From: a virus
Taxonomy: Duplodnaviria; Heunggongvirae; Uroviricota; Caudoviricetes
Direction: 5' to 3' (one strand)
DNA length: 64,000 nt
Virus record (IMG/VR): IMGVR_UViG_3300029841_000001
Location: 1 to 64,000 of that record
Made by a program: the position numbers and the translations under genes. How positions within the stretch are numbered: position 1 is the first letter of the stretch; every line of letters begins with the position of its first letter. The notes beneath the pieces are model-generated. The model did not search any database, was not told the DNA's origin, and was given only the letters and a program-made list of their open reading frames with translations. Below, piece after piece: positions 736 through 62,524 of this stretch.

Positions 736-1605
736 TTATACTCCCAATTCAAGTTTAAGTTGTGGTTTAATTGGATTATAATTTTCAAGGGAAAAATCTT
801 CGATTGAGAAATCATAGAAATTATTAGACTTAGGATTAAAATTCATTTTGACTGGTTCAAATTCATAATCATAATGTCCATTAGATGTAGATAAATCTAG
901 TTTTTGTGCATTCGCTCTATTAATAAGTTCATTCGCAGCATCAATGTGACGATCATAAATCTGCTCATTCGCTACGAAGTGTGTAAATTTACCTGCTTTA
1001 TATCCTGTTGCTTTTGCAATCATCATATGTAAACAAGCGTATTGTACTTCATTAACACCACCTGCTCCACTAGCAGTAATCATATCTCCACTTCTCTGAA
1101 TAAGACACATATCAAGATATTCACCCCTTACATTCCAAATAGTAAGGAATGCACATGGCGCAAGTCCGTCAGTTTCTCTCAGATCATTTTCTTGCCATAG
1201 CGATATGATTTTTCTTCTTCCGTATGGATTAGTTTTAATATCATTAATTAGATTATTAATTAGATCATATTTTTTTACTGTATATCCGTATCTATGACCA
1301 ATTGTTCCGTCACCAATATTCCAGTCGTTCCACCATCTTACACCCATATCTTCCATCTCAGAAATTACATTTGTAGGCTTTTGATAAATGGTAAAAATTT
1401 CTCTAATCGCACTTTTCCACGCAATAGGACGTAATGTACAAATTGGAAATTCAGTTTGAAGATTGTAAGTTCTCACAACATGATTCACAAAATATGTATA
1501 AGCTGGTGTGCCATCTTCATATTTAGGACGAGGATTTTCGTCTTTTGTTCCATTTGCAAGAATGTTACGAATATCATTCACAAGTAATAAATCTGCTCTT
1601 GTCAT
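736..1605 (-). CDS. Thymidylate synthase family protein (ThyA fold), divergent; possibly a dUMP hydroxymethylase
   Basis: The fold can be aligned to ThyA: RRKIISLWQ (ThyA RR.I.SAWNP), catalytic-Cys segment LAPCAF (ThyA PCH with His replaced by Ala), GGVNEV retaining the Asn that specifies dUMP, and NEQIY where ThyA has DTHLY. Confidence 0.6.
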   Translation of the reverse strand: MTRADLLLVNDIRNILANGTKDENPRPKYEDGTPAYTYFVNHVVRTYNLQTEFPICTLRPIAWKSAIREIFTIYQKPTNVISEMEDMGVRWWNDWNIGDGTIGHRYGYTVKKYDLINNLINDIKTNPYGRRKIISLWQENDLRETDGLAPCAFLTIWNVRGEYLDMCLIQRSGDMITASGAGGVNEVQYACLHMMIAKATGYKAGKFTHFVANEQIYDRHIDAANELINRANAQKLDLSTSNGHYDYEFEPVKMNFNPKSNNFYDFSIEDFSLENYNPIKPQLKLELGV

Positions 1606-4898: not shown

Positions 4899-5810
4899 TT
4901 ATTCTCCTTCTACAATTCCCCAACCTTTACAAGTAGGGCATTCACAATATTTTTTGTTAATCTGTGACATAAGCTCTGTTAAAAATTTCTCTACTTTATT
5001 TTGTAAATCTTGATAATTTTCTCCGATAATAGATGGAGCTTTTACACAATCTTTTCCAAAATCTGTAGATGTTGAATTTTTAAAATCAATAATCGTTTCT
5101 GTTTTATGTGAAATCATACGATTAACCCACTTAGGCTTTCTTTTTCTTTTACTGAATAGATTATTATTTGTATCAATTAAAATATTGTATGGATCAGCCA
5201 ATGCGATTTTCTTCTTTACTTCAAAATGAAAATCATAATCAGATGTGATATCAGCAACATTAGTATCAATATTTGCTTTAACATAATTTCTTATAATCTT
5301 TAACATTTCATCACAATCTAGTTTGCAAGGTTTGTCTTGATATGCTTCTTCTGGATATTCAATTTGTGTGAGTAAATCTGTTTTTGCATTATATTTATTG
5401 GGAACAAACTCAAAATTTTCTCTTGAGTAAATTTCTTTAATTTCAAATTCAATTGGTTCATATTCTCCTGGAATAGTGTCATACTTATAGTTATATAATC
5501 CAATTACTTCATCGTATTCTTCACTTTGTTCCATTTCTTGTGTGATAATCTGTGGCATGAGTTCTGTTGCAGTATATCCTGCTTTCAGTTCATACCTAAC
5601 ATTAATACGTTTATCTTCTTGCTTTGCTGCTACAACTTTAGGAATACTATTAAGTTTAAACCATCTATCTTTATTTGTTTTCTCTGGTACTTCACCATCA
5701 AATAAGTATCTAGTTAAGTCTGTAACTCCATAATAATCTTCATCTGCTATGTAAATATAGTTTTTACAGTTAATTACTTTAAGTTTTAATAGATTTTCTT
5801 TACTATACAT
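4899..5810 (-). CDS. Hypothetical protein with C-terminal zinc ribbon
   Basis: 303 aa, C-terminal CECPTCKGWG. Confidence 0.4.
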   Translation of the reverse strand: MYSKENLLKLKVINCKNYIYIADEDYYGVTDLTRYLFDGEVPEKTNKDRWFKLNSIPKVVAAKQEDKRINVRYELKAGYTATELMPQIITQEMEQSEEYDEVIGLYNYKYDTIPGEYEPIEFEIKEIYSRENFEFVPNKYNAKTDLLTQIEYPEEAYQDKPCKLDCDEMLKIIRNYVKANIDTNVADITSDYDFHFEVKKKIALADPYNILIDTNNNLFSKRKRKPKWVNRMISHKTETIIDFKNSTSTDFGKDCVKAPSIIGENYQDLQNKVEKFLTELMSQINKKYCECPTCKGWGIVEGE

Positions 5811-5812
5811 AT

Positions 5813-6094
5813 TTATTCTCCCATATCATGAAATTCTCTACCATTAAGAATATTAATTAGTGCATTTTTATCTCTTTCTAATGCAAGCGAATATGAACAT
5901 TTTGCAATAGAATCAGATTGGGACAATGGTTTTCTTTCTAATTCTTCATTAATTTTCTTATCAAGAAAATCTACAAATCTCCATAAACGATCTTCAATAG
6001 AAGGAATTAATTTGCCATGAATGTTACCATTTGTATCAAGCTGTATATCAGCAACGTTGCACTTATTGAAGTTGGCTACTTCTTTCTTACTCAA
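5813..6094 (-). CDS. Hypothetical protein
   Basis: 93-aa ORF. Confidence 0.35.
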   Translation of the reverse strand: MSKKEVANFNKCNVADIQLDTNGNIHGKLIPSIEDRLWRFVDFLDKKINEELERKPLSQSDSIAKCSYSLALERDKNALINILNGREFHDMGE

Positions 6095-26917: not shown

Positions 26918-27829
26918 TTAATGCATTTCCTTATCGGCTTTATGTAATCTCATTACATTATTATAAAGTTTATCTCCAAGCAATTTTTGATATTTATGTT
27001 TTGTTTTATCTCCGTATTCTTTATCTTTTTCCCAGAAATGAGGTTGCATATGTAAATTAATAATAATAGAAACATCCAATCTATTTACACTTTGTGGATA
27101 ATCAAAGAACAAACTATCATATGAACCTGTACAATGATGCTGATAATAATGTGCTATATCTGTTATTTCTCCTTTTGAGTTAACAAAGCTTTTAACAAAT
27201 GGTTTACCGCAATCATGAAGCGATCCCGCATAGTATAGTAAAGAATTATCTTTTAATTCCTCTCCAACTAATTTGCAATGTTGTCCAAGTGTATATACAT
27301 GATGTGGATTATCCTGGTTAAATTCCATATGTTTATCAATCCAATTTTCAACAGTATCCACAATTTTATAATTTTGCGGGAACACGATCCTAATATCATC
27401 CCATCCTTCAAACCAATATGGAGTATTCCAATTTTTATACATTCTATCAATTACTTCATATGGAACAATTCTACTTCTTGACTCATTCTGTTTATAGCAC
27501 ATATGAAACGGAGTAGCCATTATTATACATTTTTTAATACATGGAATATTTTTAAGTTCAGACAAAAACGCCCTACGTCTTTTAGATTTAATATTTGTTG
27601 CGTCATAAATTGTATTCTTACCATTTTTTAAATTATTTTTAATTCTTTTGTGCAATACACGAAATACTTCTTCGTTTTGATTTTGTATATTTTCATTACC
27701 AAATAATTCTTCTCTAATAGCATCTGAATTACAAATTATTGCATTAATGTCATCCGATAATTGTTTTGCATAAGTGGACTTGCCTGACCCAACAAGACCA
27801 ACCATCATAATAAAAATAGGTTTATTCAT
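26918..27829 (-). CDS. Polynucleotide kinase-HD phosphohydrolase (Pnk-HD-type end-healing enzyme)
   Basis: N-terminal P-loop kinase (MVGLVGSGKSTYAKQ, downstream D and R as in polynucleotide 5'-kinases). C-terminal HD domain (H..H...LHDCGKP...H). Adjacent to the RNA ligase. Confidence 0.6.
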   Translation of the reverse strand: MNKPIFIMMVGLVGSGKSTYAKQLSDDINAIICNSDAIREELFGNENIQNQNEEVFRVLHKRIKNNLKNGKNTIYDATNIKSKRRRAFLSELKNIPCIKKCIIMATPFHMCYKQNESRSRIVPYEVIDRMYKNWNTPYWFEGWDDIRIVFPQNYKIVDTVENWIDKHMEFNQDNPHHVYTLGQHCKLVGEELKDNSLLYYAGSLHDCGKPFVKSFVNSKGEITDIAHYYQHHCTGSYDSLFFDYPQSVNRLDVSIIINLHMQPHFWEKDKEYGDKTKHKYQKLLGDKLYNNVMRLHKADKEMH

Positions 27830-29144
27830 TTACAGTTTCCTCATATAATTCTTCTGCTTCTTCAATATCGGGAGTATCTGATGTATCTTTTGCAATACCT
27901 TCAACAACTTTAAATTCAAAAACTTTATCTTTAAAAGCAGTAAATGTTTCCCTATTATCAATACGGACGACTACTCCTTCTGCGATATGTGTCTTTCCAA
28001 TCTCATCCACTGGCATCCCGTCAAGATATTTATTTACTCTCATTTTTAAATCTTCTGGGGTTGTATAAATAAATTTCTCTAAATCTGGTACATGTTTAAC
28101 GCCTAATTTGTCACACCATATTTTAGTTACTTCCCAAGGGACTTCAACAACTGTTCCATCTGCGGTAGTCATAGTCATTCTATACACATACATTTCTGAT
28201 TCACCAGGTTTACATCCATATGAAAATATAGTAGTGTCACCGAATTTCTTTATAAATGCTTTATCTTTTACACTTTTATTTGAAACGGAACTCATAATAG
28301 GAGTAGACTCATTTACATATCCAACAATCTCATAAAAGATTTCACATCCTTCTGGTAATTTATCTTTTAAAATATCATGATATTTTCTTCTGAATCCATT
28401 GTCTGAATAATATCCATCATTCTTTGCCATATCTTTTAATACAACTCTTCTACTTCCAGATACAACGGAAACTTCTCTAATTGTCTTTGGACACATTCGA
28501 AATAATCTTCTTAGTAAATTATTTTTCTTGGTTACTTTTACAGTTTTCATTGTACGTGCAGATGTTCCATGCATTTTTCTTGTAATATAAATTGTATCTC
28601 CTGGTTTAAACGCAGATATATTATATGCAAGCTGTGCAGTATCCTTATGCTCTTCAAAAAATGGATACGATATAGATTCTTGTTTATATTTATTTTTCTT
28701 ATTTTTTGAATTAGGTATATTTGAATTTGAACGTCTTTTACTTCTTGGAATATATTTCTTACAAATCTCATGTCCTCCAAGAATTGTAATTTGATCACCA
28801 TCTTTTAATTTTGAAATATCAGTATATTTAGAAAGTGTTTCAACTGGTAAAACAAGTCCTTCTGATTTCTCGCCACGGAGTCTTATAGCGGTAACATTTC
28901 TTTTTTCTGCGTCCATATAACCGCCGATGTTATTACCATTTTCATCTTTCTTTCGCACAAGATTATTATCTATAGCAAATTCAATAGAAAGCTGTCCATC
29001 GGAAGGAAAGAATATTACTTTTTGTCCTTCTTTATAGCTTAAATCTACAATTACATTTTGACCAAATACTTCCGCACACTGTAATCTATCAGCATTACTA
29101 TGTTTCCTTAGACCTTTTAGCGTTGTTATATATGCACAATACAT
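27822..29144 (-). CDS. ATP-dependent RNA ligase (Rnl2/DraRnl-like)
   Basis: Adenylyltransferase motif I RKMHGTS (T4 Rnl2 KIHGTN); N-terminal extension upstream of the nucleotidyltransferase domain; 440 aa. Confidence 0.55.
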   Translation of the reverse strand: MYCAYITTLKGLRKHSNADRLQCAEVFGQNVIVDLSYKEGQKVIFFPSDGQLSIEFAIDNNLVRKKDENGNNIGGYMDAEKRNVTAIRLRGEKSEGLVLPVETLSKYTDISKLKDGDQITILGGHEICKKYIPRSKRRSNSNIPNSKNKKNKYKQESISYPFFEEHKDTAQLAYNISAFKPGDTIYITRKMHGTSARTMKTVKVTKKNNLLRRLFRMCPKTIREVSVVSGSRRVVLKDMAKNDGYYSDNGFRRKYHDILKDKLPEGCEIFYEIVGYVNESTPIMSSVSNKSVKDKAFIKKFGDTTIFSYGCKPGESEMYVYRMTMTTADGTVVEVPWEVTKIWCDKLGVKHVPDLEKFIYTTPEDLKMRVNKYLDGMPVDEIGKTHIAEGVVVRIDNRETFTAFKDKVFEFKVVEGIAKDTSDTPDIEEAEELYEETVNE

Positions 29145-33694: not shown

Positions 33695-34723
33695 TTAGAT
33701 TTCACCTTTAACTACTCTTTCATTTACAGAAGCTACAAACTCATTAATCTTTTTATAATCTGGACTATCTGGTAAATCGGTATTCTCTTTTGCGTAGTCT
33801 AATCTCTTTTCATATTCATCTACCATTTCATAAAATTCTGGAACAGGTTGCCTATTTTCATCTAAATATTTACCATTACGAATATCCATAAGTAAATCAT
33901 GCTCTTTATCTCTATAGGTATTGATTTCTCCTTTTTCAAGAATATCCAGGCACATCATATATAATCTAATCAAATGCATCATATGTTTACCTAATTTATT
34001 TGCTTCAATCGCTTTTTGATTGCGTTTACCAATCTTGCCATATGCTTTTACGATAGATTGCATTTCAGAAATCATACCAGAATAATCTCTTAGAGGATAA
34101 TGTGTTAAATTCACATCCATAAAAATTTCCGTATCATATCCCTCTTGAACTGCTTTATCAATATATAATTTAATCGCATCATCTGGCATTGTAAAATGTT
34201 TTTGTTTAAAGTCAAACATTGCATGATCAATTGTCTTAAAGATATGTTCTTCGTTTTTAGCCTGTCCAACTAATCTATTTGACTTATTCTCCAACCTACG
34301 GAGCTGCTGATTAGCATAGCCACCAAAAGAATAAATTGCTTTCTTCGATAGAAATAAATCTTTATTATAAATAAATTCTCTACCAATTGGCGATACATAG
34401 AAATAATGTTCTGGTTTATTACCGAGCATTTCAATTGTGTTAGGATTACAATTGCATAACAGTGAAATCAATTTATTAAACGCATAAATGGTTGTATCTG
34501 TTTTTTCATTTACAAATTGCTCAAAATTTTCATTCGTAAGAATTTGCATTTTACTATTCAATGCACATCCTCTAATATCCAGATCACTTGTTTCTGTATT
34601 TGTACCATAAGCATGACTTCCACCAAGTGTAAGAATAATAATATTATTACCTAAATTCTTATCTTTTCGTAAGAAATCGTATTCTTTACTTCTTAATTTC
34701 TCTTTAATCTGCTCTATTGTCAT
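33695..34723 (-). CDS. Pol-beta-superfamily nucleotidyltransferase
   Basis: LTLGGSHAYGTNTETSDLDIRG matches hG[GS]-x9-13-[DE]h[DE]h; 342 aa with a helical C-terminal domain. Confidence 0.5.
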   Translation of the reverse strand: MTIEQIKEKLRSKEYDFLRKDKNLGNNIIILTLGGSHAYGTNTETSDLDIRGCALNSKMQILTNENFEQFVNEKTDTTIYAFNKLISLLCNCNPNTIEMLGNKPEHYFYVSPIGREFIYNKDLFLSKKAIYSFGGYANQQLRRLENKSNRLVGQAKNEEHIFKTIDHAMFDFKQKHFTMPDDAIKLYIDKAVQEGYDTEIFMDVNLTHYPLRDYSGMISEMQSIVKAYGKIGKRNQKAIEANKLGKHMMHLIRLYMMCLDILEKGEINTYRDKEHDLLMDIRNGKYLDENRQPVPEFYEMVDEYEKRLDYAKENTDLPDSPDYKKINEFVASVNERVVKGEI

Positions 34724-35869: not shown

Positions 35870-36175
35870 CTAATGCTCCTCATTTTTATCCGTATAATAT
35901 CTACCAAAAACCATATTAAATAAATAGCCTAAAATTAATATCCTCTTTAATTGATTTGGAGATACTGGACGTAAATCCATAAATGCACCTAAAATTTCAG
36001 TTGTTTCAAAATCCATCATATGATAATCGCAACTATTTGGATCAGATATTCCATGTTTAAAATATAAATCATCTTCACTTTGTAATCTTTGTGGTTCAAA
36101 AGTTTGTTCATAAATTGATTTATAAACAGACATTGGAATTTTATCAAATAATTCTAATTCAAACATATTTCTCAC
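35870..36175 (-). CDS. Hypothetical protein
   Basis: 101 aa. Confidence 0.35.
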   Translation of the reverse strand: MRNMFELELFDKIPMSVYKSIYEQTFEPQRLQSEDDLYFKHGISDPNSCDYHMMDFETTEILGAFMDLRPVSPNQLKRILILGYLFNMVFGRYYTDKNEEH

Positions 36176-36192
36176 CTCATGAAAGACGCATT

Positions 36193-37080
36193 TTATCGTG
36201 TAATAACATTAAACATATCATCTACAGAATCAAGTAAATCATATCTTTTATCAAACGGAGCAGTTGAACTTTTTGCAAATTTTTTCTCTACCATATCAAT
36301 GTAATATGTAAATTCAGAATCTCGTCCCATATAAAACTCATCCCATTCTTCCTGAGTTAATAATCTTTTTACATTCAACTGCTCAATTGCAAGATTATCA
36401 AAACTTACAACTTTAAATTTCTGAATAATATCTTCAAGATTTTCATATAACCATTGCTGCTTAGTCTCAATATCATTCTGTTCTTCTTCAAAATACTCAT
36501 TACCTCTACGCAAATGTTTATACCCAAGAATTAACATCTTTAAATTATTATTCTCTAATGCTTTTATATCAGATGGTTTTAATACACCATTAATTACATG
36601 AATAACTGCATTTGGATATTGTTTTATAAGTTCAATAAAATGTTTTGTGGGATTTACTAGCGAAACGCCAAGACCATAGATTAATTTCTCGTCAACTAAC
36701 TTTTTGATTAATTCATGCTTCTTTTCAAAATGGATCTGATTAACAGTCATATTTGCAATAACTTTTCGTTCTTTTAGTTTTTGTAAGAATGGAATTAAAT
36801 CAGGATGACTGGTTGCATCACCACCGCCAATTGCAATTTCTTGATATGGATGTAAAGTATCAATAAATTTTTCATTTAAAATATCTCCAAATTTACCATG
36901 TAAAGAGCTACCCTCATGACAAAATTTACATCCCCTATCACAGTAATTACAAATTTTTACATCCATGTTTTCAGCAAAACTAGGAATAAATTCATCATCT
37001 TTTGTTTCTCTAATTTTTGTTCCGTCACTCAAAATAGTTGTCACAAAGTTACCGTTTTTATATCTTCCTAATAATCCCAT
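36193..37080 (-). CDS. Radical SAM enzyme
   Basis: CNYCDRGCKFC contains the CxxxCxxC [4Fe-4S] motif near the N-terminus; glycine-rich AIGGGD SAM-binding-like motif; 295 aa. Confidence 0.55.
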   Translation of the reverse strand: MGLLGRYKNGNFVTTILSDGTKIRETKDDEFIPSFAENMDVKICNYCDRGCKFCHEGSSLHGKFGDILNEKFIDTLHPYQEIAIGGGDATSHPDLIPFLQKLKERKVIANMTVNQIHFEKKHELIKKLVDEKLIYGLGVSLVNPTKHFIELIKQYPNAVIHVINGVLKPSDIKALENNNLKMLILGYKHLRRGNEYFEEEQNDIETKQQWLYENLEDIIQKFKVVSFDNLAIEQLNVKRLLTQEEWDEFYMGRDSEFTYYIDMVEKKFAKSSTAPFDKRYDLLDSVDDMFNVITR

Positions 37081-37095
37081 TCTTAACCCTCCTAA

Positions 37096-37389
37096 TCAAT
37101 CATGACCGTAATATCCAAATGCAACTACTGTATCACCATTTTTTGTCGTAAATGTATCTTCAAAAGTTTTATAATCAAGTGCGCCATACTCATTAAAACG
37201 ATCATATGTATAATATCTGTCATCATCATCATGATCTGTATCATCTAGTGGAATTAATTTATCTTCCCAATAATCATAAATAAGTTCTCCATTTTTCCAT
37301 CTATCATAATCTGATTGTGTACACATTGTTAAACTATGTACGCTTGATGAATTAGTTTCAAATACACCTCGTCTAATTTGTCTCTTCAT
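37096..37389 (-). CDS. Hypothetical protein, paralog A (N-terminal MKRQIRRGVFETNSSSVH motif)
   Basis: Shares a near-identical 20-aa N-terminus with the next gene. Confidence 0.4.
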   Translation of the reverse strand: MKRQIRRGVFETNSSSVHSLTMCTQSDYDRWKNGELIYDYWEDKLIPLDDTDHDDDDRYYTYDRFNEYGALDYKTFEDTFTTKNGDTVVAFGYYGHD

Positions 37390-37394
37390 ATAAT

Positions 37395-37973
37395 TTAATT
37401 TCCTTTCATATAAACTTCATAATTGTCAAACACTGGTTTTAATCCACCATAATTTGTATATGTACCCCAACTTGTTTCTTCTTCACCTTCGTTGACATAC
37501 ATTGTGTCTCTAAAAGCATTCGAGTTATCATTGCCAGTAATCACTATTGAATTACCAAACAAATACCTAAATAATTTATCTGAATCTGCTAATACATCAT
37601 TAACAAAATCTTGTGTTTCTTCTGAATGATCAATATACCCATCAATATCATAGTAGTATCTTGTTTTACCATCATATTTATATGTATCAACTTTTAATTC
37701 CGGAAGAGTATATTCAATATTATTATCATCTAAAATATCTTTTAATTTCTGTAAATTTTCATCTGCCTTATTCTTATCAAAACTTAGAATCGCCGTGATT
37801 AAATATGATGCCTTATCATATGATGCCCCATAAGTAATATTCTCCCAACCAAACTCTCCTACTACAAAATCAATATGACTTAAAGGATTGTAATTCCCTT
37901 TAGTGATACAAATTGCATGTGTACTACTCGAATTAGTTTCAAAAACACACCTTCTAATCTGTCTCTTCATTTT
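37395..37973 (-). CDS. Hypothetical protein, paralog B (MKRQIRRCVFETNSSSTH motif)
   Basis: The listed ORF extends to 38012. The internal Met at 37973 has a good RBS (AGAGAGGAAAAT) and aligns with paralog A. Confidence 0.4.
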   Translation of the reverse strand, partial: KMKRQIRRCVFETNSSSTHAICITKGNYNPLSHIDFVVGEFGWENITYGASYDKASYLITAILSFDKNKADENLQKLKDILDDNNIEYTLPELKVDTYKYDGKTRYYYDIDGYIDHSEETQDFVNDVLADSDKLFRYLFGNSIVITGNDNSNAFRDTMYVNEGEEETSWGTYTNYGGLKPVFDNYEVYMKGN

Positions 37974-38012
37974 ATTTTCCTCTCTTTCTTCTTTATGAAA
38001 ACAACATTTCAT

Positions 38013-39113
38013 TTATCTTAAATCTACATCATTTCGGGTTTCTCCATCAGAATAATAAATATTCCAATCATTAAATAAATTTATAAGCAAATCATTATCC
38101 CATTTGTCATATTCATTACAATGGGTAATTGCAATTGATTTTGTATTTCCAAAATCTCCAATATCATCAGAACATCTATTATATAGTTCTCTTAGATTAA
38201 GATGTCCATATCTTAATATATCTTGAAAAGGATTTGGAACATTTGTTTTATCATACATATATTCGTTAATAAAATTTTTATTGCATTCTGATGGAAATTT
38301 CCCTGCGCCATGTCTTGTTAAATAAGTACGAGATACATAACAAGTTTCAATATTTATATCATCATTCCATTCAATATTTTCAATTATTTTCTTGGGATTT
38401 TTAATTCCAGTGTTAGATGGGGTAAGATGTGGAAAATAATCAATATTATTTTGATCAAGTAAAAGCCCTTGTGCTGCTTCAAAAATAATATTGTCATACT
38501 GATTTAAGAAATATTCATCTGAAATACACAATGAATGGCTATTCATAAAATCCAAGTCTTCTAAGAAATGTTCAAATATACCATTATCAAAAAAGATTTT
38601 CAACCATTCGCCTGATAATTCAATGTCCTCCTTTTTAAATTGTTCCAAATAGTATTCTTTAATATTGTAATCTAAATCAGTTACACCAGCTCTATATCTT
38701 TTAATTGTCTCAAAAACCCCTAATCCACAACTACCATGTTTATTTTTACCACGGCTTTCCTCAACGATTTGATTAGCTATCATATCAAATGGAGTTGTTA
38801 TCATGCAATTTTGATTAATATATACATTTAGATTATGATTAAGTTTTACTAACTCATCATATTCTTGTTTAAAAATAATTGGATTAAGAATAAAATCCTC
38901 AGATAAATATGTACTTGCGTTATTAAATGTACCTGATCCAAAATGATGAAAGACATGTCTAATTGCAGTTGGCGTTGTTACAGTATGTCCTCTTTGCGCT
39001 CCACCATTTGAACACACAACAATGCTATTGGATTTTTGCGAAAAATAATCTGTCATCAAGCCCTTTCCTTCATCCCCAAAATTTGCTCCAATTACAATCT
39101 TAATGTCTTTCAT
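38013..39113 (-). CDS. Adenylosuccinate-synthetase-like enzyme (PurA family; PurZ candidate)
   Basis: GANFGDEGKGLMTD (PurA GDEGKGK P-loop) and NGGAQRGHTV (PurA GG.NAGHT). 366 aa is shorter than cellular PurA and within the phage PurZ range. Confidence 0.55.
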   Translation of the reverse strand: MKDIKIVIGANFGDEGKGLMTDYFSQKSNSIVVCSNGGAQRGHTVTTPTAIRHVFHHFGSGTFNNASTYLSEDFILNPIIFKQEYDELVKLNHNLNVYINQNCMITTPFDMIANQIVEESRGKNKHGSCGLGVFETIKRYRAGVTDLDYNIKEYYLEQFKKEDIELSGEWLKIFFDNGIFEHFLEDLDFMNSHSLCISDEYFLNQYDNIIFEAAQGLLLDQNNIDYFPHLTPSNTGIKNPKKIIENIEWNDDINIETCYVSRTYLTRHGAGKFPSECNKNFINEYMYDKTNVPNPFQDILRYGHLNLRELYNRCSDDIGDFGNTKSIAITHCNEYDKWDNDLLINLFNDWNIYYSDGETRNDVDLR

Positions 39114-39130
39114 CTTTTAATTCTCCTATT

Positions 39131-40009
39131 CTACCATGTAATTTCTTCTGAACCAGAAGATGTTGTAACTGAATTTACTACATTATTTTCTGCTTCATTA
39201 ATGATAATGTCTACAATTTCATTCGTAATACTATCCATAGTCACTTTTCTAAAATGAACATCATCAAGATATTTTCTATAAGATGTTTCAATCTCATCTT
39301 CGTCCCATCTACGACCATGATTTACATCTAAATGATAAATATTAAATTTTTTAGAAACTTCATTATATAAATCTTTTGTTTCTACATCATCTTGAAGATT
39401 ATCCCCTGTTGCTTCAATCAATCCGCTATAACAACCTCTTAACGGAAGATATGGATTAAGCTGTTCATCTCCCATAGTGATGATAATTCCTTTTCTTCCA
39501 CGATTTAAACAATCAAGCTTTGTATGACGAGAACCAAAATACCATGCTGCGGTATAAGACTCGTAATTATTTCCACCACCACCAAATTCAAAATAAATTT
39601 TATCAAGCTGTTCAGCAATACGAATATCTGATTCAAACTGAGAAGCTTGAATAGGGTAAATGTCACATGCTAAATCTCCAATCCCCATAATGAGAAATTC
39701 AACATCTGTTACTTTCTCATATAATTTAGTCATAATTACATTGAGTTTCTTTGCTACTTCAACGGCAGCTTGTCCCATAGATCCAGTAACATCTAATGCT
39801 AAAATAACTGGAACTGTATTTGGATGTTCTTCTGTGTCGCAACATTCCCTGATTACATTTTTAGGATTCAGTGCAGGATCAATATTTGTAGCTTTGAACA
39901 TATCCTGATTAGAATAAGAACCACTAATTGTTCCATCTTTTGAAACACTTCTTCCTACTGATTTTGAATAACTTGTATAACTAGCTCTTGTCCATGATCC
40001 ACATCCCAT
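39131..40009 (-). CDS. von Willebrand factor A (VWA) domain protein
   Basis: MIDAS motif ILALDVTGSMG. Confidence 0.55.
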   Translation of the reverse strand: MGCGSWTRASYTSYSKSVGRSVSKDGTISGSYSNQDMFKATNIDPALNPKNVIRECCDTEEHPNTVPVILALDVTGSMGQAAVEVAKKLNVIMTKLYEKVTDVEFLIMGIGDLACDIYPIQASQFESDIRIAEQLDKIYFEFGGGGNNYESYTAAWYFGSRHTKLDCLNRGRKGIIITMGDEQLNPYLPLRGCYSGLIEATGDNLQDDVETKDLYNEVSKKFNIYHLDVNHGRRWDEDEIETSYRKYLDDVHFRKVTMDSITNEIVDIIINEAENNVVNSVTTSSGSEEITW

Positions 40010-40010
40010 A

Positions 40011-40619
40011 TTATGCTTCCTCCTCTTCTTCTACATCTGTATCATTGTCTGTATCAAAATCAAACATTCCATCAAACATTTCTCCCATATTTCCACCCAT
40101 CATCATAAATGGTAACATGGCACTCATTCCTCCACTATTTCCATTTAGCATTCCAGAAGAATTGTTTTCACCTTTCATCATTTGTGAAAGCATCATATAT
40201 TTAAAAATATTGTTTGTGCCTTTCTTTCCTTTTAAAATATCACATCCAAACATTGAAACAATTTTCCCATAAAAATATGTATTACCCATAAATACATGTC
40301 TCTCAGGTAAAATAGTTTCTACTGTTGAATCTTCATAGTTGATTACAGTAATTTTAGTTTTATCAGATTCAATGACACATTTTGGTTTATTATTAACTAA
40401 AATAATATCACCTTTTTCTACTTTATTTGTTGGAATTACAAAGAAAAATTCTTCTCCAATATCAAACACAAAATTGCTACAATTAGTAAGTTTACTTGTT
40501 TTAACATTGTAGCTTTTGTACCCGTTTGATGTTTTTACTGCAATTCCTCCATTCATTGAAAGCCTACACATTCCACTTCCAACTTTCCCAAACATCCCGT
40601 TTAAAAAATTGTTCATCAT
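40011..40619 (-). CDS. Hypothetical protein with Gly/Met-rich and acidic C-terminal tail
   Basis: 202 aa; ...GMLNGNSGGMSAMLPFMMMGGNMGEMFDGMFDFDTDNDTDVEEEEEA; overlaps the VWA gene (operon). Confidence 0.4.
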   Translation of the reverse strand: MMNNFLNGMFGKVGSGMCRLSMNGGIAVKTSNGYKSYNVKTSKLTNCSNFVFDIGEEFFFVIPTNKVEKGDIILVNNKPKCVIESDKTKITVINYEDSTVETILPERHVFMGNTYFYGKIVSMFGCDILKGKKGTNNIFKYMMLSQMMKGENNSSGMLNGNSGGMSAMLPFMMMGGNMGEMFDGMFDFDTDNDTDVEEEEEA

Positions 40620-40688
40620 TTTTTATTCCTCCTGTTTTATATATTATTTATTGTTATGTGCTTTATTTCTCCAAATGAAACTGCCGTT

Positions 40689-40874
40689 TCAAGATTCCCT
40701 TGCAACCAGTTCCGTAATAGCATAAATCAAATCATCTAATAGTTCTTCCTTATCTTCCGCACTCAAAGATTTCGTGACTTCTTTTTGTCCACTATGATTT
40801 CTTGTGAATACTCTATATTTATTGTTATCAAAATCATACTCTACTCTAAATCTGCTTCCTACTAGACTAATCAT
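40689..40874 (-). CDS. Hypothetical protein
   Basis: 61 aa. Confidence 0.3.
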   Translation of the reverse strand: MISLVGSRFRVEYDFDNNKYRVFTRNHSGQKEVTKSLSAEDKEELLDDLIYAITELVARES

Positions 40875-52693: not shown

Positions 52694-53473
52694 TCACATT
52701 TCAACAATTCTGTATAATTGCCTATTCAGATAATGTTCAAGTAAATAATCATTATCTAGCCCAGTACCATGATAAAATTCTTCTGCAATTCCACCACCTA
52801 TAGCACATAATGTATCCATATCACATTTCAACGAGAATACATTTCGCAAGAAACTTTCATAATCATCACTTTCCAGAAAACATCTTATTGCAACAGGTAC
52901 ACTTCCTTGACAAGTTTCATTCCACTGATATGTCTTTCTATAGTCTTCAATTTTATATTCAACACTATATTGATAATCGTCTTTTGGGTAATTCTTCTTC
53001 ACATATTCATAGATTTCTGCTTTTGTAGCACCTGTTCTTGCCATATAAATGCACATTGCTGTTACAACTGCTCCTTTGATTCCCTCTGAATGATTATGTG
53101 TACACTCAGCAGATTTTGTAGCCCATTCGATAACTTCTTTTTCTGTATTAAAATGTTCTCCGACATAAGAACATCTCATTGCAGATCCATTACCAAAACT
53201 TCCATATGTAGTTTCATCATCGTATCTTAACCACGTTTCAAAATTGTTTCCATATCCTGCATTTGGATATTTTCTTCCCCATTCTCTATATGATTCTGCG
53301 AAAGATTTATTATTAAGAATTGCTAATTTAGCAGCAAGTGTCATTACAGTATCATCTGTAAAATAACATCTATCAGTAAATAACTTACAATTCTTCCAGT
53401 CTAAATCAATCGGTCTACCAAATTCATATTGTGAACCTGCAATATCTCCTAAAATTGCGCCAATGATAGCCAT
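52694..53473 (-). CDS. ADP-ribosylglycohydrolase family protein (ARH/DraG-like)
   Basis: N-terminal AIIGAILGDIAGSQYEF (GDALG.p.E motif) and FTDDTVMTLA (DDT motif); 259 aa. Confidence 0.6.
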   Translation of the reverse strand: MAIIGAILGDIAGSQYEFGRPIDLDWKNCKLFTDRCYFTDDTVMTLAAKLAILNNKSFAESYREWGRKYPNAGYGNNFETWLRYDDETTYGSFGNGSAMRCSYVGEHFNTEKEVIEWATKSAECTHNHSEGIKGAVVTAMCIYMARTGATKAEIYEYVKKNYPKDDYQYSVEYKIEDYRKTYQWNETCQGSVPVAIRCFLESDDYESFLRNVFSLKCDMDTLCAIGGGIAEEFYHGTGLDNDYLLEHYLNRQLYRIVEM

Positions 53474-58179: not shown

Positions 58180-58330
58180 TACCAATTCTCTTTCCTCTTT
58201 ATTGTCAACATTTCCCCATTTTTCTACTACGTCACGCTTGTCAATGGTAAAAATCTGCTCTCGTGAACTACCACGAAGCTAAAGACTTCGTAGCTTCTTG
58301 GGACTATACTCTTATGAGCATTTCATTACC
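58180..58330 (-). ncRNA. Predicted omega-RNA (reRNA) region at the 3' end of tnpB / right end
   Basis: Inferred from TnpB biology: the guide RNA scaffold derives from the tnpB 3' end and RE, and this region contains the RE hairpin. Boundaries are not determinable from sequence alone. Confidence 0.3.
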
Positions 58331-59680
58331 AAGCTAATAACCGTGTTCCACAGTCTCTTATATTCATCGCTGCATTATAATCTCTATCGTTTTCATATCC
58401 ACAATCACAAGTATACCATCTGTCTGATAATTGCAAATCTTCTTTAATAGTGCCACAACAATGACACATTTTAGAAGACGGAAACCATTTATCAATCTTA
58501 ATAAATTGTTTTCCTTGTTCTTCCAACTTATATTTCAAAAAAGTCCTAAACATTCCAAATCCATTATCATGAACATTCTTTCCAAGTTTTAGACATTGAG
58601 CCATATTTCTTAAATCAATATCTTCTACTATAACAGCGTCATATTCGCCAGCTATTCTTCTCGATTCTTGGTGTAACCAATTAAGTCTTTGATTTGCAAT
58701 ATGTCTTTGTAATGTTGTAATTTTTTGTTTTTGTTTATACCAGTTTTTAGATTTAAGTTTTTTTCTTGACAATCCTCTTTGGATTTTTTTTAATTTTTCT
58801 TCTGATTTCCTATAATAGTGAGGATAATTGGCTTTCTTACCATTGCTATCAACATAGAAATCATGTTGAGAATAATCTAATCCAAGAACTTTTTCTGATT
58901 TCTTTGATTCAATATCAATTACATATTTAACACATAAACTGACATAAAATACACCCTTATTATCCATTGAAACAGTACAATTCTTAATAATTGAATTATT
59001 TGGCAATGGACGATGTTGTTTTACTTTAATCAATGTTTTAAGTTTTGGAATTTTTAACATAGAATTTTCCAATGTAATTAAATTCCATTTTTCACCTTGT
59101 GACTGATTATATGTTCTATATGAAAAATCATTGTTCTTAATACTCTTAAATCTTGGCATTCCTTTTAAGTCTCTGAAAGTAAGTTTAATTCCTAATGTCT
59201 TTTCTCTTTTTCGACTGCTTTTGGTATATGTCTTTTTATCATATTCTGTATTAAATTTTTTAATGGCATTATTAAAATCCATTTTTGCACTTGATAAACA
59301 CTGAGCATCAACATTTTTCATATAATCAAACTGTCTTGAAAAATCAGTATATTTACTCAAATGCAATTCCGATTTTTTAATTATTCCATTCTGATAACTA
59401 GACTCTTCGAGTTTTCTATATAACTCATCAACATACATATTGTATATTTTTCTTGCACAACCAAATGATTGTAAGAAAAACTCTTTCTGATCTTTAGTTG
59501 GAGCAATTTTAAACTTATAACCTCGATTAATGATAGTTTCCATCGTCTCACCACCTTTCTATGGATATTTTAGTTCCTACATATTTTTCTTTGATTTATT
59601 CTTCTTTATGTTGGTATATTCTCTATTCACATTCATTCACTAGGCTAAAGACCTAGTGGATTTCTGCTCTAGAAGTTTTA
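58260..59680 (-). mobile_element. IS200/IS605-family (IS1341-type, tnpB-only) insertion sequence with subterminal hairpins
   Basis: Intact TnpB ORF flanked by two hairpins in the same orientation with identical CTAAAGA loops and different, compensatory stems: ACGAAG/CTTCGT at 58273-58291 and CACTAGG/CCTAGTG at 59638-59658. This is typical of IS200/IS605 LE/RE structures. The element ends are approximate. Confidence 0.6.
58326..59543 (-). CDS. tnpB: TnpB (OrfB) RuvC-like RNA-guided nuclease/transposase-associated protein
   Basis: N-terminal OrfB-type HTH (GYKFKIAPTKDQKEFFLQSFGCARKIYN), C-terminal RuvC-III plus zinc ribbon CHCCGTIKED...CDCGYENDRDYNAAMNI; 405 aa. Confidence 0.75.
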   Translation of the reverse strand: METIINRGYKFKIAPTKDQKEFFLQSFGCARKIYNMYVDELYRKLEESSYQNGIIKKSELHLSKYTDFSRQFDYMKNVDAQCLSSAKMDFNNAIKKFNTEYDKKTYTKSSRKREKTLGIKLTFRDLKGMPRFKSIKNNDFSYRTYNQSQGEKWNLITLENSMLKIPKLKTLIKVKQHRPLPNNSIIKNCTVSMDNKGVFYVSLCVKYVIDIESKKSEKVLGLDYSQHDFYVDSNGKKANYPHYYRKSEEKLKKIQRGLSRKKLKSKNWYKQKQKITTLQRHIANQRLNWLHQESRRIAGEYDAVIVEDIDLRNMAQCLKLGKNVHDNGFGMFRTFLKYKLEEQGKQFIKIDKWFPSSKMCHCCGTIKEDLQLSDRWYTCDCGYENDRDYNAAMNIRDCGTRLLAW

Positions 59681-61984: not shown

Positions 61985-62524
61985 TTACTTAACCTCAAAT
62001 TTAAGAATCATTTTCTTAACTCTATCAATTTCTTCTGTTGTATGTGGTGTTCCACCTGCGTTCATATCAATATACCACTGTAACACTTCTCGTTCTGTCT
62101 TTAAATCATTCACATTCAATTTTACAGTATGACTATTTAACATTGCTAAATCCGTATACTCATTGAAATATGATCCAAATACTTTGATTTCGTTATTGAT
62201 AAATCTGCAAATAGCAGTCAATCTTTGCAACCCATCTACACACACAAACTCATTGTATGCTCCATCTTGAACAGACCAATGCCATGATGGACAATTAAAG
62301 TATATGATATTTCCGCTTTTACCGCCTTTAAGAAAGAACTCTAACCATGCAATCTGCTGTTCCTCTGTCCATACATGTCCTCTCTGGAAATCTGGGTTAA
62401 GCTGCAAGTTCATATCTTCTTCCATGTCTTTTATCCATCTAGGAACTCTACTGATATTTACATCACATTGATAGTTACCATCCCTGGTAAATTGTGGTAT
62501 GTATTTAAATTTTGTATACTTCAT
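61985..62524 (-). CDS. DUF262 (ParB/DGQQR-type) domain protein
   Basis: NPDFQRGHVW ... CVDGLQRLTAI; 179 aa. Confidence 0.55.
   Translation of the reverse strand: MKYTKFKYIPQFTRDGNYQCDVNISRVPRWIKDMEEDMNLQLNPDFQRGHVWTEEQQIAWLEFFLKGGKSGNIIYFNCPSWHWSVQDGAYNEFVCVDGLQRLTAICRFINNEIKVFGSYFNEYTDLAMLNSHTVKLNVNDLKTEREVLQWYIDMNAGGTPHTTEEIDRVKKMILKFEVK

Follow-up and report, generated by a model that had tools for sequence, protein, structure and literature searches.

Two independent phage cassettes side by side: a radical-SAM enzyme with tagged partner proteins and a PurA-family enzyme with constant gene neighbours

The locus described here, positions 36,193 to 40,619 of the first 64,000 nucleotides of the IMG/VR virus record IMGVR_UViG_3300029841_000001 (Caudoviricetes; this whole 64-kb stretch is referred to as the window), holds six genes whose closest described counterparts include two groups of systems. 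The first is formed by the radical S-adenosylmethionine (rSAM) maturases, including PqqE/PqqA, the sactipeptide and SCIFF-type systems and the anaerobic sulfatase-maturating enzymes; a SPASM or RRE domain is present in most known peptide maturases. The second is formed by the adenylosuccinate synthetase PurA and its relative PurZ, neither of which, to our knowledge, is known to need partners resembling those found here. The locus comprises two independent, widely conserved phage cassettes lying side by side, and not one pathway. Cassette A consists of the genes for a PurA-family enzyme, a probable von Willebrand factor A (VWA)-like protein and a Met/Gly-rich protein, while cassette B consists of the gene for an rSAM enzyme and those for two proteins sharing an N-terminal segment with the motif FETNSSS (the tag). 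The components come from known superfamilies (rSAM, PurA and VWA), and neither cassette matches a described system. Taken together with the readings of the individual cassettes given below, it appears likely that the two adjoin as independent accessory cassettes in a variable early/middle region of a human-gut phage of roughly 170-180 kb and ~30% GC.

The block had been pointed out earlier from its sequence (the original prediction) as a single, operon-like module of five consecutive genes. All of the minus-strand open reading frames (ORFs) on which this view was based are present, and the identities proposed for them (rSAM, PurA-like, VWA-like, Gly/Met-rich and duplicated FETNSSS genes) were upheld, as was the remark that none of the genes has a functional description; their number, however, is six (Table 1). 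They are transcribed in the order Met/Gly-rich, VWA-like, PurA-like, long tagged, short tagged and rSAM gene, with gaps of 1, 17, 42, 5 and 15 nt. Tight packing of co-oriented genes is thus confirmed, but it does not set the block apart, since all substantial ORFs of the window lie on the minus strand with short intergenic gaps. No terminators were predicted between 35.5 and 41.5 kb, a promoter scan gave no excess of promoter-like sites at the block, and PADLOC returned no significant match.

Table 1. Features of the locus, in window coordinates.
Feature	Position	Strand	Remarks
Met/Gly-rich protein, cassette A gene 1	40011..40619	-	202 aa; small N-terminal domain and Met/Gly-rich acidic tail
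Probable VWA-like protein, cassette A gene 2	39131..40009	-	292 aa; MIDAS-type LDVTGSMG motif
PurA-family enzyme, cassette A gene 3	38013..39113	-	366 aa; Pfam Adenylsucc_synt
Long-type tagged (FETNSSS) protein, cassette B	37395..37970	-	191 aa; ORF readable from 38012
Short-type tagged (FETNSSS) protein, cassette B	37096..37389	-	97 aa; acidic Tyr-rich middle, C-terminal ...VVAFGYYGHD
Radical-SAM enzyme, cassette B	36193..37080	-	295 aa; single CxxxCxxC motif
Tag-coding segment of the short gene (MKRQIRRGVFETNSSSVHSL)	37330..37389	-	direct repeat D1
Tag-coding segment of the long gene (MKRQIRRCVFETNSSSTHAI)	37911..37970	-	second copy of direct repeat D1
Replaceable segment	36193..37994	.	one unrelated 76-aa ORF here in MT835469.1

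The closest public record, MT835469.1, a 'Bacteriophage sp.' of 176 kb from human faeces, carries no annotation. It is 95% identical to the window over 35877-36212 and 99.4% identical over 37994-40689 and retains the Met/Gly-rich, VWA-like and PurA-like genes, while the 1.8 kb encoding the rSAM enzyme and both tagged proteins are replaced by 283 bp, with breakpoints at gene boundaries. The converse pattern is seen in Lak megaphages, which match only the rSAM/FETNSSS part (66-69% DNA identity). In four contigs with a 93-94%-identical rSAM enzyme, genes of 194, 147 and 97 aa are constant together with the rSAM gene; two of the four also have the PurA-like gene, and the VWA-like gene of these two is split into two ORFs. 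The complete PurA/VWA/GlyMet set was found at 8 of 80 viral loci selected by the FETNSSS protein, and neither a PurA-like nor a VWA-like gene at any of 77 loci selected in the same way from genomes and metagenome-assembled genomes (MAGs). When viral loci were selected by the VWA-like protein instead, 20 of 80 had an rSAM gene within 5 kb and 11 a long-type tagged gene. The relative order of the cassettes varies as well, the trio standing on the opposite side of the rSAM cassette in contigs L030 and L037. Cassette B occurs without cassette A in Lak phages, in the cyanophage Ma-LMM01 and in contig L003; the cluster C mycobacteriophages and the Vibrio and Rhizobium phages that carry cassette A do not appear among the cassette B hits.

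It was suggested originally that the whole block serves one nucleotide or DNA hypermodification pathway, given that its genes are packed tightly in one orientation and that an rSAM gene adjoins the gene of a nucleotide-type enzyme; the proximity of both cassettes in a subset of related phages might be added. Such a pathway nevertheless seems extremely improbable. A relative 99.4% identical over the rest of the block lacks three of the six genes, the complete trio is rare or absent at the rSAM/FETNSSS loci, and each cassette is found without the other in varying relative order. The scattering of the genes independently of one another among related phages, which the original prediction had regarded as telling against it, is nearly what was observed. 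Nothing pointed to DNA hypermodification: the PurA-like enzyme is not of PurZ type (see below), the window has no homologues of phiVC8 DatZ, the adjacent p26 or DpoZ, and the ThyA-family protein encoded at 736-1605 (minus strand) is probably a normal thymidylate synthase and not a hydroxymethylase, because its full-length score on the thymidylate synthase equivalog (308.6 bits) comes near the cut-off of 327.

The composition of cassette B was established from loci collapsed at 85% rSAM identity. All 86 non-redundant loci have at least one tagged ORF on the same strand within 4 kb of the rSAM gene (one to nine nearby, 190 in total), and no third conserved gene was found at them, the next commonest neighbour, a polynucleotide kinase (PNK)-like gene, occurring at 12 of the 86; the cassette is therefore strictly two-component. 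Of 80 loci on viral contigs selected by the FETNSSS protein, 77 include an rSAM orthologue (44% identity at the lowest) no more than ~2 kb away, and two of the remaining three end at the locus edge. For genome and MAG contigs the figure is 66 of 77, or 44 of 46 when full-length loci are counted; most of these 'genome' hits, being contigs of 100-170 kb in MAG bins, are probably mis-binned phages. Among complete phage records the FETNSSS protein was found in 24, belonging to 15 Lak and 9 Microcystis phages (Ma-LMM01/MaMV group); a full-length rSAM orthologue of at least 38% identity is found in the very same records and in no others. Cassette B is thus present in Lak megaphages, in many gut phages and in the cultured Ma-LMM01 (gp128/gp130). 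Its gene order is not fixed, since in Lak-A1 the rSAM gene comes first and five tagged ORFs follow, and the number of tagged genes ranges from one in Ma-LMM01 to nine. The largest expansion is seen in two MAG contigs, L235 and L241, assigned to Fibrobacter and Prevotella bins, where nine tandem tagged ORFs with mostly unrelated bodies stand by one rSAM gene. In L003 (8996-9952) a GIY-YIG homing endonuclease gene lies between the short tagged gene and the rSAM gene, and NAD-dependent DNA ligase, NadR-like and PnuC (NAD salvage) genes are its neighbours. No literature linking rSAM enzymes to Lak phages was found.

What the partner proteins have in common is the tag. Across 336 unique tagged ORFs its consensus reads M-K-[RK]-Q-I-R-x-G-V-F-E-T-N-S-S-S-T-H-S-[LI], with the core R-x-x-x-F-E-T-N-S-S-S-x-H; the motif starts 8-9 residues past Met-1 in 306 of them, and R(-4) and H(+8) are essentially invariant though outside the search pattern. 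The bodies that follow fall into 18 clusters with no BLAST link among them, the largest being the long type (162 ORFs at 130 loci, ending ...[FY]xKGN) and the second the short type (122 ORFs at 114 loci, ending ...AFGYYGHD). L003, Lak-A1 and numerous further loci encode short-type orthologues with a matching C-terminus. The median length of the tagged partners is 167 aa (range 30-318). Neither Pfam, NCBIfam nor PADLOC gave anything significant for the FETNSSS proteins or for the VWA-like and Met/Gly-rich proteins of cassette A, and no paper containing 'FETNSSS' was found.

The two tagged genes of the window had been described as tandem paralogs. They do share an N-terminus (first ~29 residues, 62% identity, E 1e-9), but the likeness ends there. 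The DNA similarity of ~85% reported for them was reproduced as 35 of 41 identical positions (85%) between 37350-37390 and 37931-37971, and amounts to 80% over the 59-nt repeat; the tag-coding segments are identical at 43 of 60 nt. All three serine codons differ synonymously between the copies, across two serine codon families (TCA TCA AGC versus TCG AGT AGT), and the tag is therefore kept by protein-level selection, not by gene conversion. The start of the long gene, placed earlier at 38012, had to be moved to 37970: its homologues, 191-193 aa in length, begin with MKRQ, and the nucleotides between that start and 38012 are part of the flank that MT835469.1 has in common with the window. The sequence GAGAGGAAAA upstream of the MKRQ start provides a ribosome-binding site.

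The long-type family is large (1369 cluster representatives at E<=1e-3 and 529 at E<=1e-10, in clusters of 50% identity) and has no Pfam entry of its own, only two of the 120 homologues listed, both longer proteins, having any Pfam hit. AlphaFold2 predicts a confident globular α/β fold (predicted local distance difference test score, pLDDT, 93.1; predicted template modelling score, pTM, 0.88), in which the first ~15 residues, i.e. most of the tag, are of low confidence. The model has no structural match in the PDB, and a Foldseek search of BFVD retrieved only another uncharacterised family member. Residues E11, S14-S16, H18, Y56, D114, K189 and N191 are invariant, with H115 and T145-G-N-D-N149 nearly so. 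A well-defined fold with (near-)invariant Glu, Ser, His, Asp and Asn at loop positions, together with a C-terminal strand motif common to many bodies, might mean that the FETNSSS proteins are themselves enzymes, e.g. metal-dependent hydrolases, which act before or after the rSAM enzyme in a small-molecule or nucleic-acid pathway and have the motif in their active site. This seems rather doubtful: the short type and other paralogues lack D114, H115 and TGNDN while the tag is perfectly kept, up to nine different bodies accompany a single rSAM enzyme, and no known hydrolase was among the structural matches.

A constant N-terminus on variable proteins may also serve targeting. The internal proteins of T4 form a polymorphic set with a short shared capsid-targeting N-terminus, encoded in a variable region of a large phage, and the 'VFE' of the tag resembles the Glu-specific cleavage sites of prohead proteases. 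By this analogy, a family of many paralogues whose ~20-residue N-terminus is constant and keeps a fixed distance from Met-1, whose bodies are hypervariable and whose location is accessory could represent injected or anti-defence proteins bearing a targeting peptide or pro-peptide, next to which the rSAM gene would be no more than a neighbour. This is very unlikely, however, as the tagged set, unlike the T4 internal proteins, is obligately linked to the rSAM gene (86 of 86 loci), and its most invariant residues (TNSSSxH) lie past the plausible cleavage site. A further difference concerns expression. RNA-seq of Ma-LMM01 placed gp128 (rSAM), gp129 and gp130 (long-type tagged) in the middle class B5 with replication genes (PMC5780444), a class which discriminates poorly because it holds 162 genes. 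A promoter was predicted before gp130 and none is listed before gp129 or gp128 (PMC5780444 supplementary file 4). Co-expression of the rSAM and tagged genes in Ma-LMM01 speaks for cassette B as a unit.

The rSAM enzyme itself carries its cluster motif as CDRGCKFC (residues 47-54). Its match to Pfam PF04055 (Radical_SAM) is marginal (29.6 bits against a cut-off of 29.5), while phrog_16999 is matched at 1.1e-44, and PF04055 is precomputed on nearly all of the homologues listed out of more than 7434. The cysteine triad is kept in nearly all of ~80 orthologues; C47, C51 and C54 are the only invariant cysteines, and the window protein has four cysteines altogether, all within residues 44-54. Profile searches of the PDB gave weak matches confined to the cluster and 'GGE' region, the best being PqqE (2e-3), followed by QueE, SkfB and viperin. 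The NCBIfam models for MoaA, NrdG2 and the W-cofactor maturase score far below their cut-offs. In the viral contigs L074 and L081 (~5217-5969) the first two cluster cysteines are missing from the orthologous ORF, which opens with the C-terminal portion of an intein; this portion ends ...VYNIEVKDNHNYFVENILVSN directly before CHENS (...ENILVSN before C), i.e. the insertion is at the third cysteine of CxxxCxxC. Inteins characteristically occupy essential sites, and their presence at this cysteine suggests that the site is important.

Since the architecture is that of a single-cluster enzyme, an NrdG- or pyruvate formate-lyase (PFL)-type activase that installs a glycyl radical also has to be considered; there is a weak match to NrdG2 (TIGR02495, E 7e-4), and the Joint Genome Institute (JGI) names a homologue 'organic radical activating enzyme'. 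The NrdG2 score, however, is 18.9 bits against a cut-off of 131, which agrees with the original prediction in setting the enzyme apart from NrdG, and no NrdD was detected by Pfam and PHROGs scans of the larger ORFs in these 64 kb of the genome. Moreover, a Vibrio phage has separate nrdD/G genes, and the candidate C-terminal glycine of the long family, in the KGN ending, is conserved in only 70% or more of the members (...KSN, ...KVN and ...KYN occur). The long type lacks the invariant glycine motif of the RVxG[FWY] type seen in glycyl-radical partners, and the short type has GYYG. An activase role can hence be regarded as highly improbable.

One rSAM enzyme accompanied by variable proteins that share only an invariant, flexible N-terminus is the architecture to be expected if the enzyme recognises that segment, and the best inference is that it acts on, or through, the tag. 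In the proposed mechanism, the rSAM enzyme would recognise the shared ~20-residue N-terminal tag and then modify a residue of it, as a protein maturase; alternatively, the tagged proteins might serve it as exchangeable partners or specificity subunits. Like the rSAM maturase systems named above, cassette B places a single rSAM gene beside one to nine co-oriented ORFs with a common terminal segment, and PqqE is the best, though weak, PDB profile match. Unlike RiPP (ribosomally synthesized and post-translationally modified peptide) precursors, the partners are not short peptides: they span 90-320 aa, with at least one well-folded globular domain among them. The conserved segment also differs from those of RiPP systems in being Ser-rich and Cys-free. 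It is tentatively proposed, as a possibility that falls short of being probable, that cassette B might represent a new type of rSAM protein maturation, in which a fixed tag would be recognised and covalently modified in its Ser-rich core on diversifying folded proteins.

The PurA-like enzyme of cassette A belongs to the family of PurA and PurZ (Pfam PF00709 Adenylsucc_synt, 5.7e-35), although the match covers only positions 1-280 of the 416 of the profile and leaves the C-terminal third unmatched; it is 24% identical to E. coli PurA and 18% to phiVC8 PurZ. The P-loop GDEGKG (with Asp13), His41, Gln224, a T239-like Thr (VTSSN) and TRxG are retained, and relatives from Vibrio, Rhizobium and Mycobacterium phages likewise keep GD[EA]GKG, His41, FE[AG][AS]QG (Gln224), the VTSSN Thr and TRxG. 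From these family features, the enzyme probably uses the PurA/PurZ chemistry, in which a carbonyl oxygen is phosphorylated and the phosphate is displaced by an amine. In the structural literature on E. coli PurA, TTGRxRR is the aspartate loop and (N/T)KxD the guanine motif. In the window enzyme TTGRRRR is replaced by TNVPNPFQDILRY, the rebuilt loop having the general form TNxPNxFQ(G/D)xxR[YF], and TKLD by THCN.

The best PHROG of this enzyme, phrog_1211, is labelled '2-aminooxy adenylosuccinate synthetase', a label also borne by several GenBank homologues, and would make it a PurZ or PurZ0 of a phage with a 2-aminoadenine (Z) genome. Next to no credence can be given to this assignment. In all 147 phage PurZ and PurZ0 sequences of the most recent survey, where non-PurZ phage PurA homologues serve only as an outgroup, Asp13 is replaced by Ser (PMC12884076); the window enzyme keeps Asp13 and is therefore not of PurZ type. 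It scores 39.1 bits on the PurZ model NF038379 against a cut-off of 300, its PDB matches are bacterial PurA, with no PurZ below 1e-3, and phiVC8 PurZ, which reads GSTGKG at the P-loop, aligns with its first 44 residues only. The companion genes of a Z-genome are DatZ, MazZ/DUF550 or DutZ/DmtZ, and DpoZ. A tblastn search of the window, i.e. of 64 kb of the genome, with phiVC8 DatZ, p26 and DpoZ (DutZ and DmtZ were not among the queries) gave no match at E<=1 apart from a 16-residue p26 hit (E 0.81). The PHROG label probably results from over-transfer, because phrog_1211 matches the cluster C PurA-like protein I3 gp273 end to end (1.7e-142). Literature on the cluster C PurA-like gene yielded nothing beyond genome announcements.

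With its catalytic residues retained and bacterial PurA as its nearer relative, the enzyme could still be an ordinary adenylosuccinate synthetase, i.e. an auxiliary metabolic gene boosting AMP, with the VWA-like and Met/Gly-rich genes as mere neighbours. This seems unlikely. At 366 aa it is shorter than PurA (432 aa), and its aspartate loop, guanine motif and C-terminal third depart from PurA as described; all PurA equivalogs of NCBIfam, of which NF002223 is the best, remain far below cut-off (98.6 bits against 402 for NF002223). The neighbours, moreover, are constant. In all 80 viral loci selected by the VWA-like protein its gene is directly followed by the PurA-like gene, and in 79 of them it is directly preceded by the Met/Gly-rich gene; this order is fixed and extends over phages of four host groups. 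On its sequence, the enzyme is neither PurZ nor canonical PurA. Among GenBank phages, 239 records matched the PurA-like protein and 220 the VWA-like protein, almost entirely in the same groups: ~201 Mycobacterium phages (Bixzunavirus, cluster C), 10 Rhizobium phages and 6 Vibrio phages. The order is CDS0096 (Met/Gly-rich), CDS0095 (VWA-like) and CDS0094 (PurA-like) in Vibrio phage TDDLMA, EVB61_017 (Met/Gly-rich), 018, 019 (VWA-like) and 020 (purA) in Rhizobium phage TM21B, and gp270 (kinase), gp271 (VWA-like), gp272 and gp273 (PurA-like) in Mycobacterium phage I3. In cluster C mycobacteriophages, as seen in I3 (L088, 1972-3102), a Ser/Thr-kinase-like gene (gp270) takes the place of the Met/Gly-rich gene of other phages; a kinase beside a VWA-like gene recalls the bacterial pairing of the YeaG kinase with YeaH (DUF444).

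The VWA-like family counts ~5,700 homologues. M1 and G2 (consensus MGxGxW), LD[VF][TS]GS, QxxQFExDxRI, GGG, T163 and GDE are invariant, and the residues of a metal-ion-dependent adhesion site (MIDAS), D73-V-T-G-S77, T163 and D181, are kept in the homologues from Firmicutes, Vibrio, Rhizobium and Mycobacterium phages, the Rhizobium protein having DFSGS at this site. HMMER searches of nine members against the Pfam VWA families gave none at E<=1, DUF444 alone appearing at 0.06; weak matches to the MIDAS region of YeaH/DUF444 recur (local hhalign match, 36% probability), and sequence searches of the PDB gave nothing. The AlphaFold2 model is poor (pLDDT 52.5) because the underlying alignment is shallow (>=81% identity). 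The protein is probably VWA-like. It differs from known VWA/MIDAS proteins in lacking a Pfam VWA match and in its invariant N-terminus MGxGxW, and from YeaH/DUF444, BchD, ViaA and CoxE in that its partner is a PurA-family enzyme instead of an AAA+ ATPase. In contigs L004 and L006 (3619-4498), which come from close relatives, two ORFs (147+114 aa and 222+77 aa) stand in place of an uninterrupted VWA-like gene, whereas its PurA-like and Met/Gly-rich neighbours are intact; pseudogenisation or sequencing frameshifts may be the cause.

The Gly/Met-rich and acidic character ascribed earlier to the product of the first gene was confirmed, its C-terminal 83 residues containing 17% Met and 14.5% Gly. 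The protein matches no Pfam or PHROG entry apart from a weak hit to GPKOW_C (E 0.029). Its counterparts in TDDLMA and TM21B have the same architecture and precede the VWA-like gene; pairwise BLASTP with the Vibrio protein gave E 0.002.

Because the PurA-like enzyme has kept the phosphoryl-transfer half of PurA but not the amine-binding half, and because the trio is constant, the following working scheme is put forward for cassette A. The enzyme would still phosphorylate a carbonyl oxygen and couple it to an amine, but to one other than that of PurA and PurZ, perhaps with another nucleotide as well, and the reaction would depend on the VWA-like and Met/Gly-rich partners. It may, for instance, couple a phosphorylated purine or other carbonyl to a non-aspartate amine such as the invariant N-terminus of the VWA-like partner.

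Several points weigh against the readings favoured here. The rSAM enzyme has no SPASM domain or auxiliary-cluster cysteines and no recognisable RRE, in which it differs from rSAM peptide maturases. That the tag would be a substrate is deduced from the architecture. Many tagged bodies share a C-terminal hydrophobic strand with a Gly/charged ending, so that tag and C-terminus may together make up a structural or catalytic core common to these proteins, and the tag need not be a recognition peptide. The many invariant polar residues of the long family (D114, H115, TGNDN, K189) are enzyme-like. The VWA assignment leans on a low-confidence model. In a minority of phages (the 20 of 80 mentioned) only a few kb separate the two cassettes, which makes a loose functional link conceivable, and one must bear in mind that most of the loci are metagenomic and biased to gut samples.

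Both cassettes are abundant: besides the rSAM (>7,400) and VWA-like homologues, there are ~1,400 representatives of tagged proteins and ~200 cluster C mycobacteriophages. The separation of the PurA-like clade from PurZ corrects a label that is spreading through phrog_1211 and the RefSeq entries of cluster C mycobacteriophages ('2-aminooxy adenylosuccinate synthetase') and that could wrongly imply Z-genomes. Cultured systems exist for cassette B (Ma-LMM01 gp128 and gp130) as well as for cassette A (Mycobacterium phage I3 or Bxz1, Vibrio phage TDDLMA and the Rhizobium phages). If the tag is indeed the site of rSAM modification, this maturation chemistry would widen from peptides to a family of folded phage proteins, and RiPP-like logic would operate on whole proteins in a manner widespread in gut phages, Lak megaphages and Ma-LMM01.

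The window as a whole represents the replication and accessory region of a large phage. Its replication genes code for an NAD-dependent DNA ligase, an exoV/Dda-like helicase, a DNA polymerase, a RecJ-like exonuclease and a DnaB-like helicase, and a sigma factor, a Band-7 protein, a DNA methylase and an SNF2-type helicase are encoded as well. The host is probably a gut member of the Lachnospiraceae, on the admittedly weak ground that assemblies filed under Blautia wexlerae and Anaerobutyricum hallii contain close homologues of the rSAM enzyme and the VWA-like protein. Contig L005, which bears the rSAM cassette, is a 170,096-bp contig in the assembly of a B. wexlerae isolate (GCA_013300045.1); a phage-sized contig in an isolate assembly suggests the host, and a carrier-state or extrachromosomal phage is possible.

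RNA-repair genes occupy 26918-29144 and 33695-34723 (minus strand) and encode a PNK-like AAA_33 kinase, an RNA ligase (PF09414 with a PHA02142 OB domain) and an RlaP nucleotidyltransferase. The rSAM cassettes of other phages, too, have genes for PNK-like kinases, RNA ligases and Thg1-like proteins in their vicinity, though at no more than 12 of the 86 loci. An anti-defence role, also considered originally for the block, is neither supported nor contradicted by the results. About 30 kb from the block, the protein encoded at 4899-5810 (minus strand) is a full-length homologue of Gad1 (Gabija anti-defence 1; Pfam PF25705, 1.7e-65) and a bona fide anti-defence gene product. Two further conflict-related accessory genes code for an ADP-ribosylglycohydrolase (52694-53473, minus strand, 3.3e-28) and a protein with a GmrSD_N domain (61985-62524, minus strand, 3.8e-13). 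At 58326-59543 (minus strand) a TnpB/IS605 OrfB-family protein with HTH_OrfB_IS605, OrfB_IS605 and Cas12f1-like TNB domains is encoded, and a similar gene lies near the rSAM cassette of the B. wexlerae-associated contig L005.

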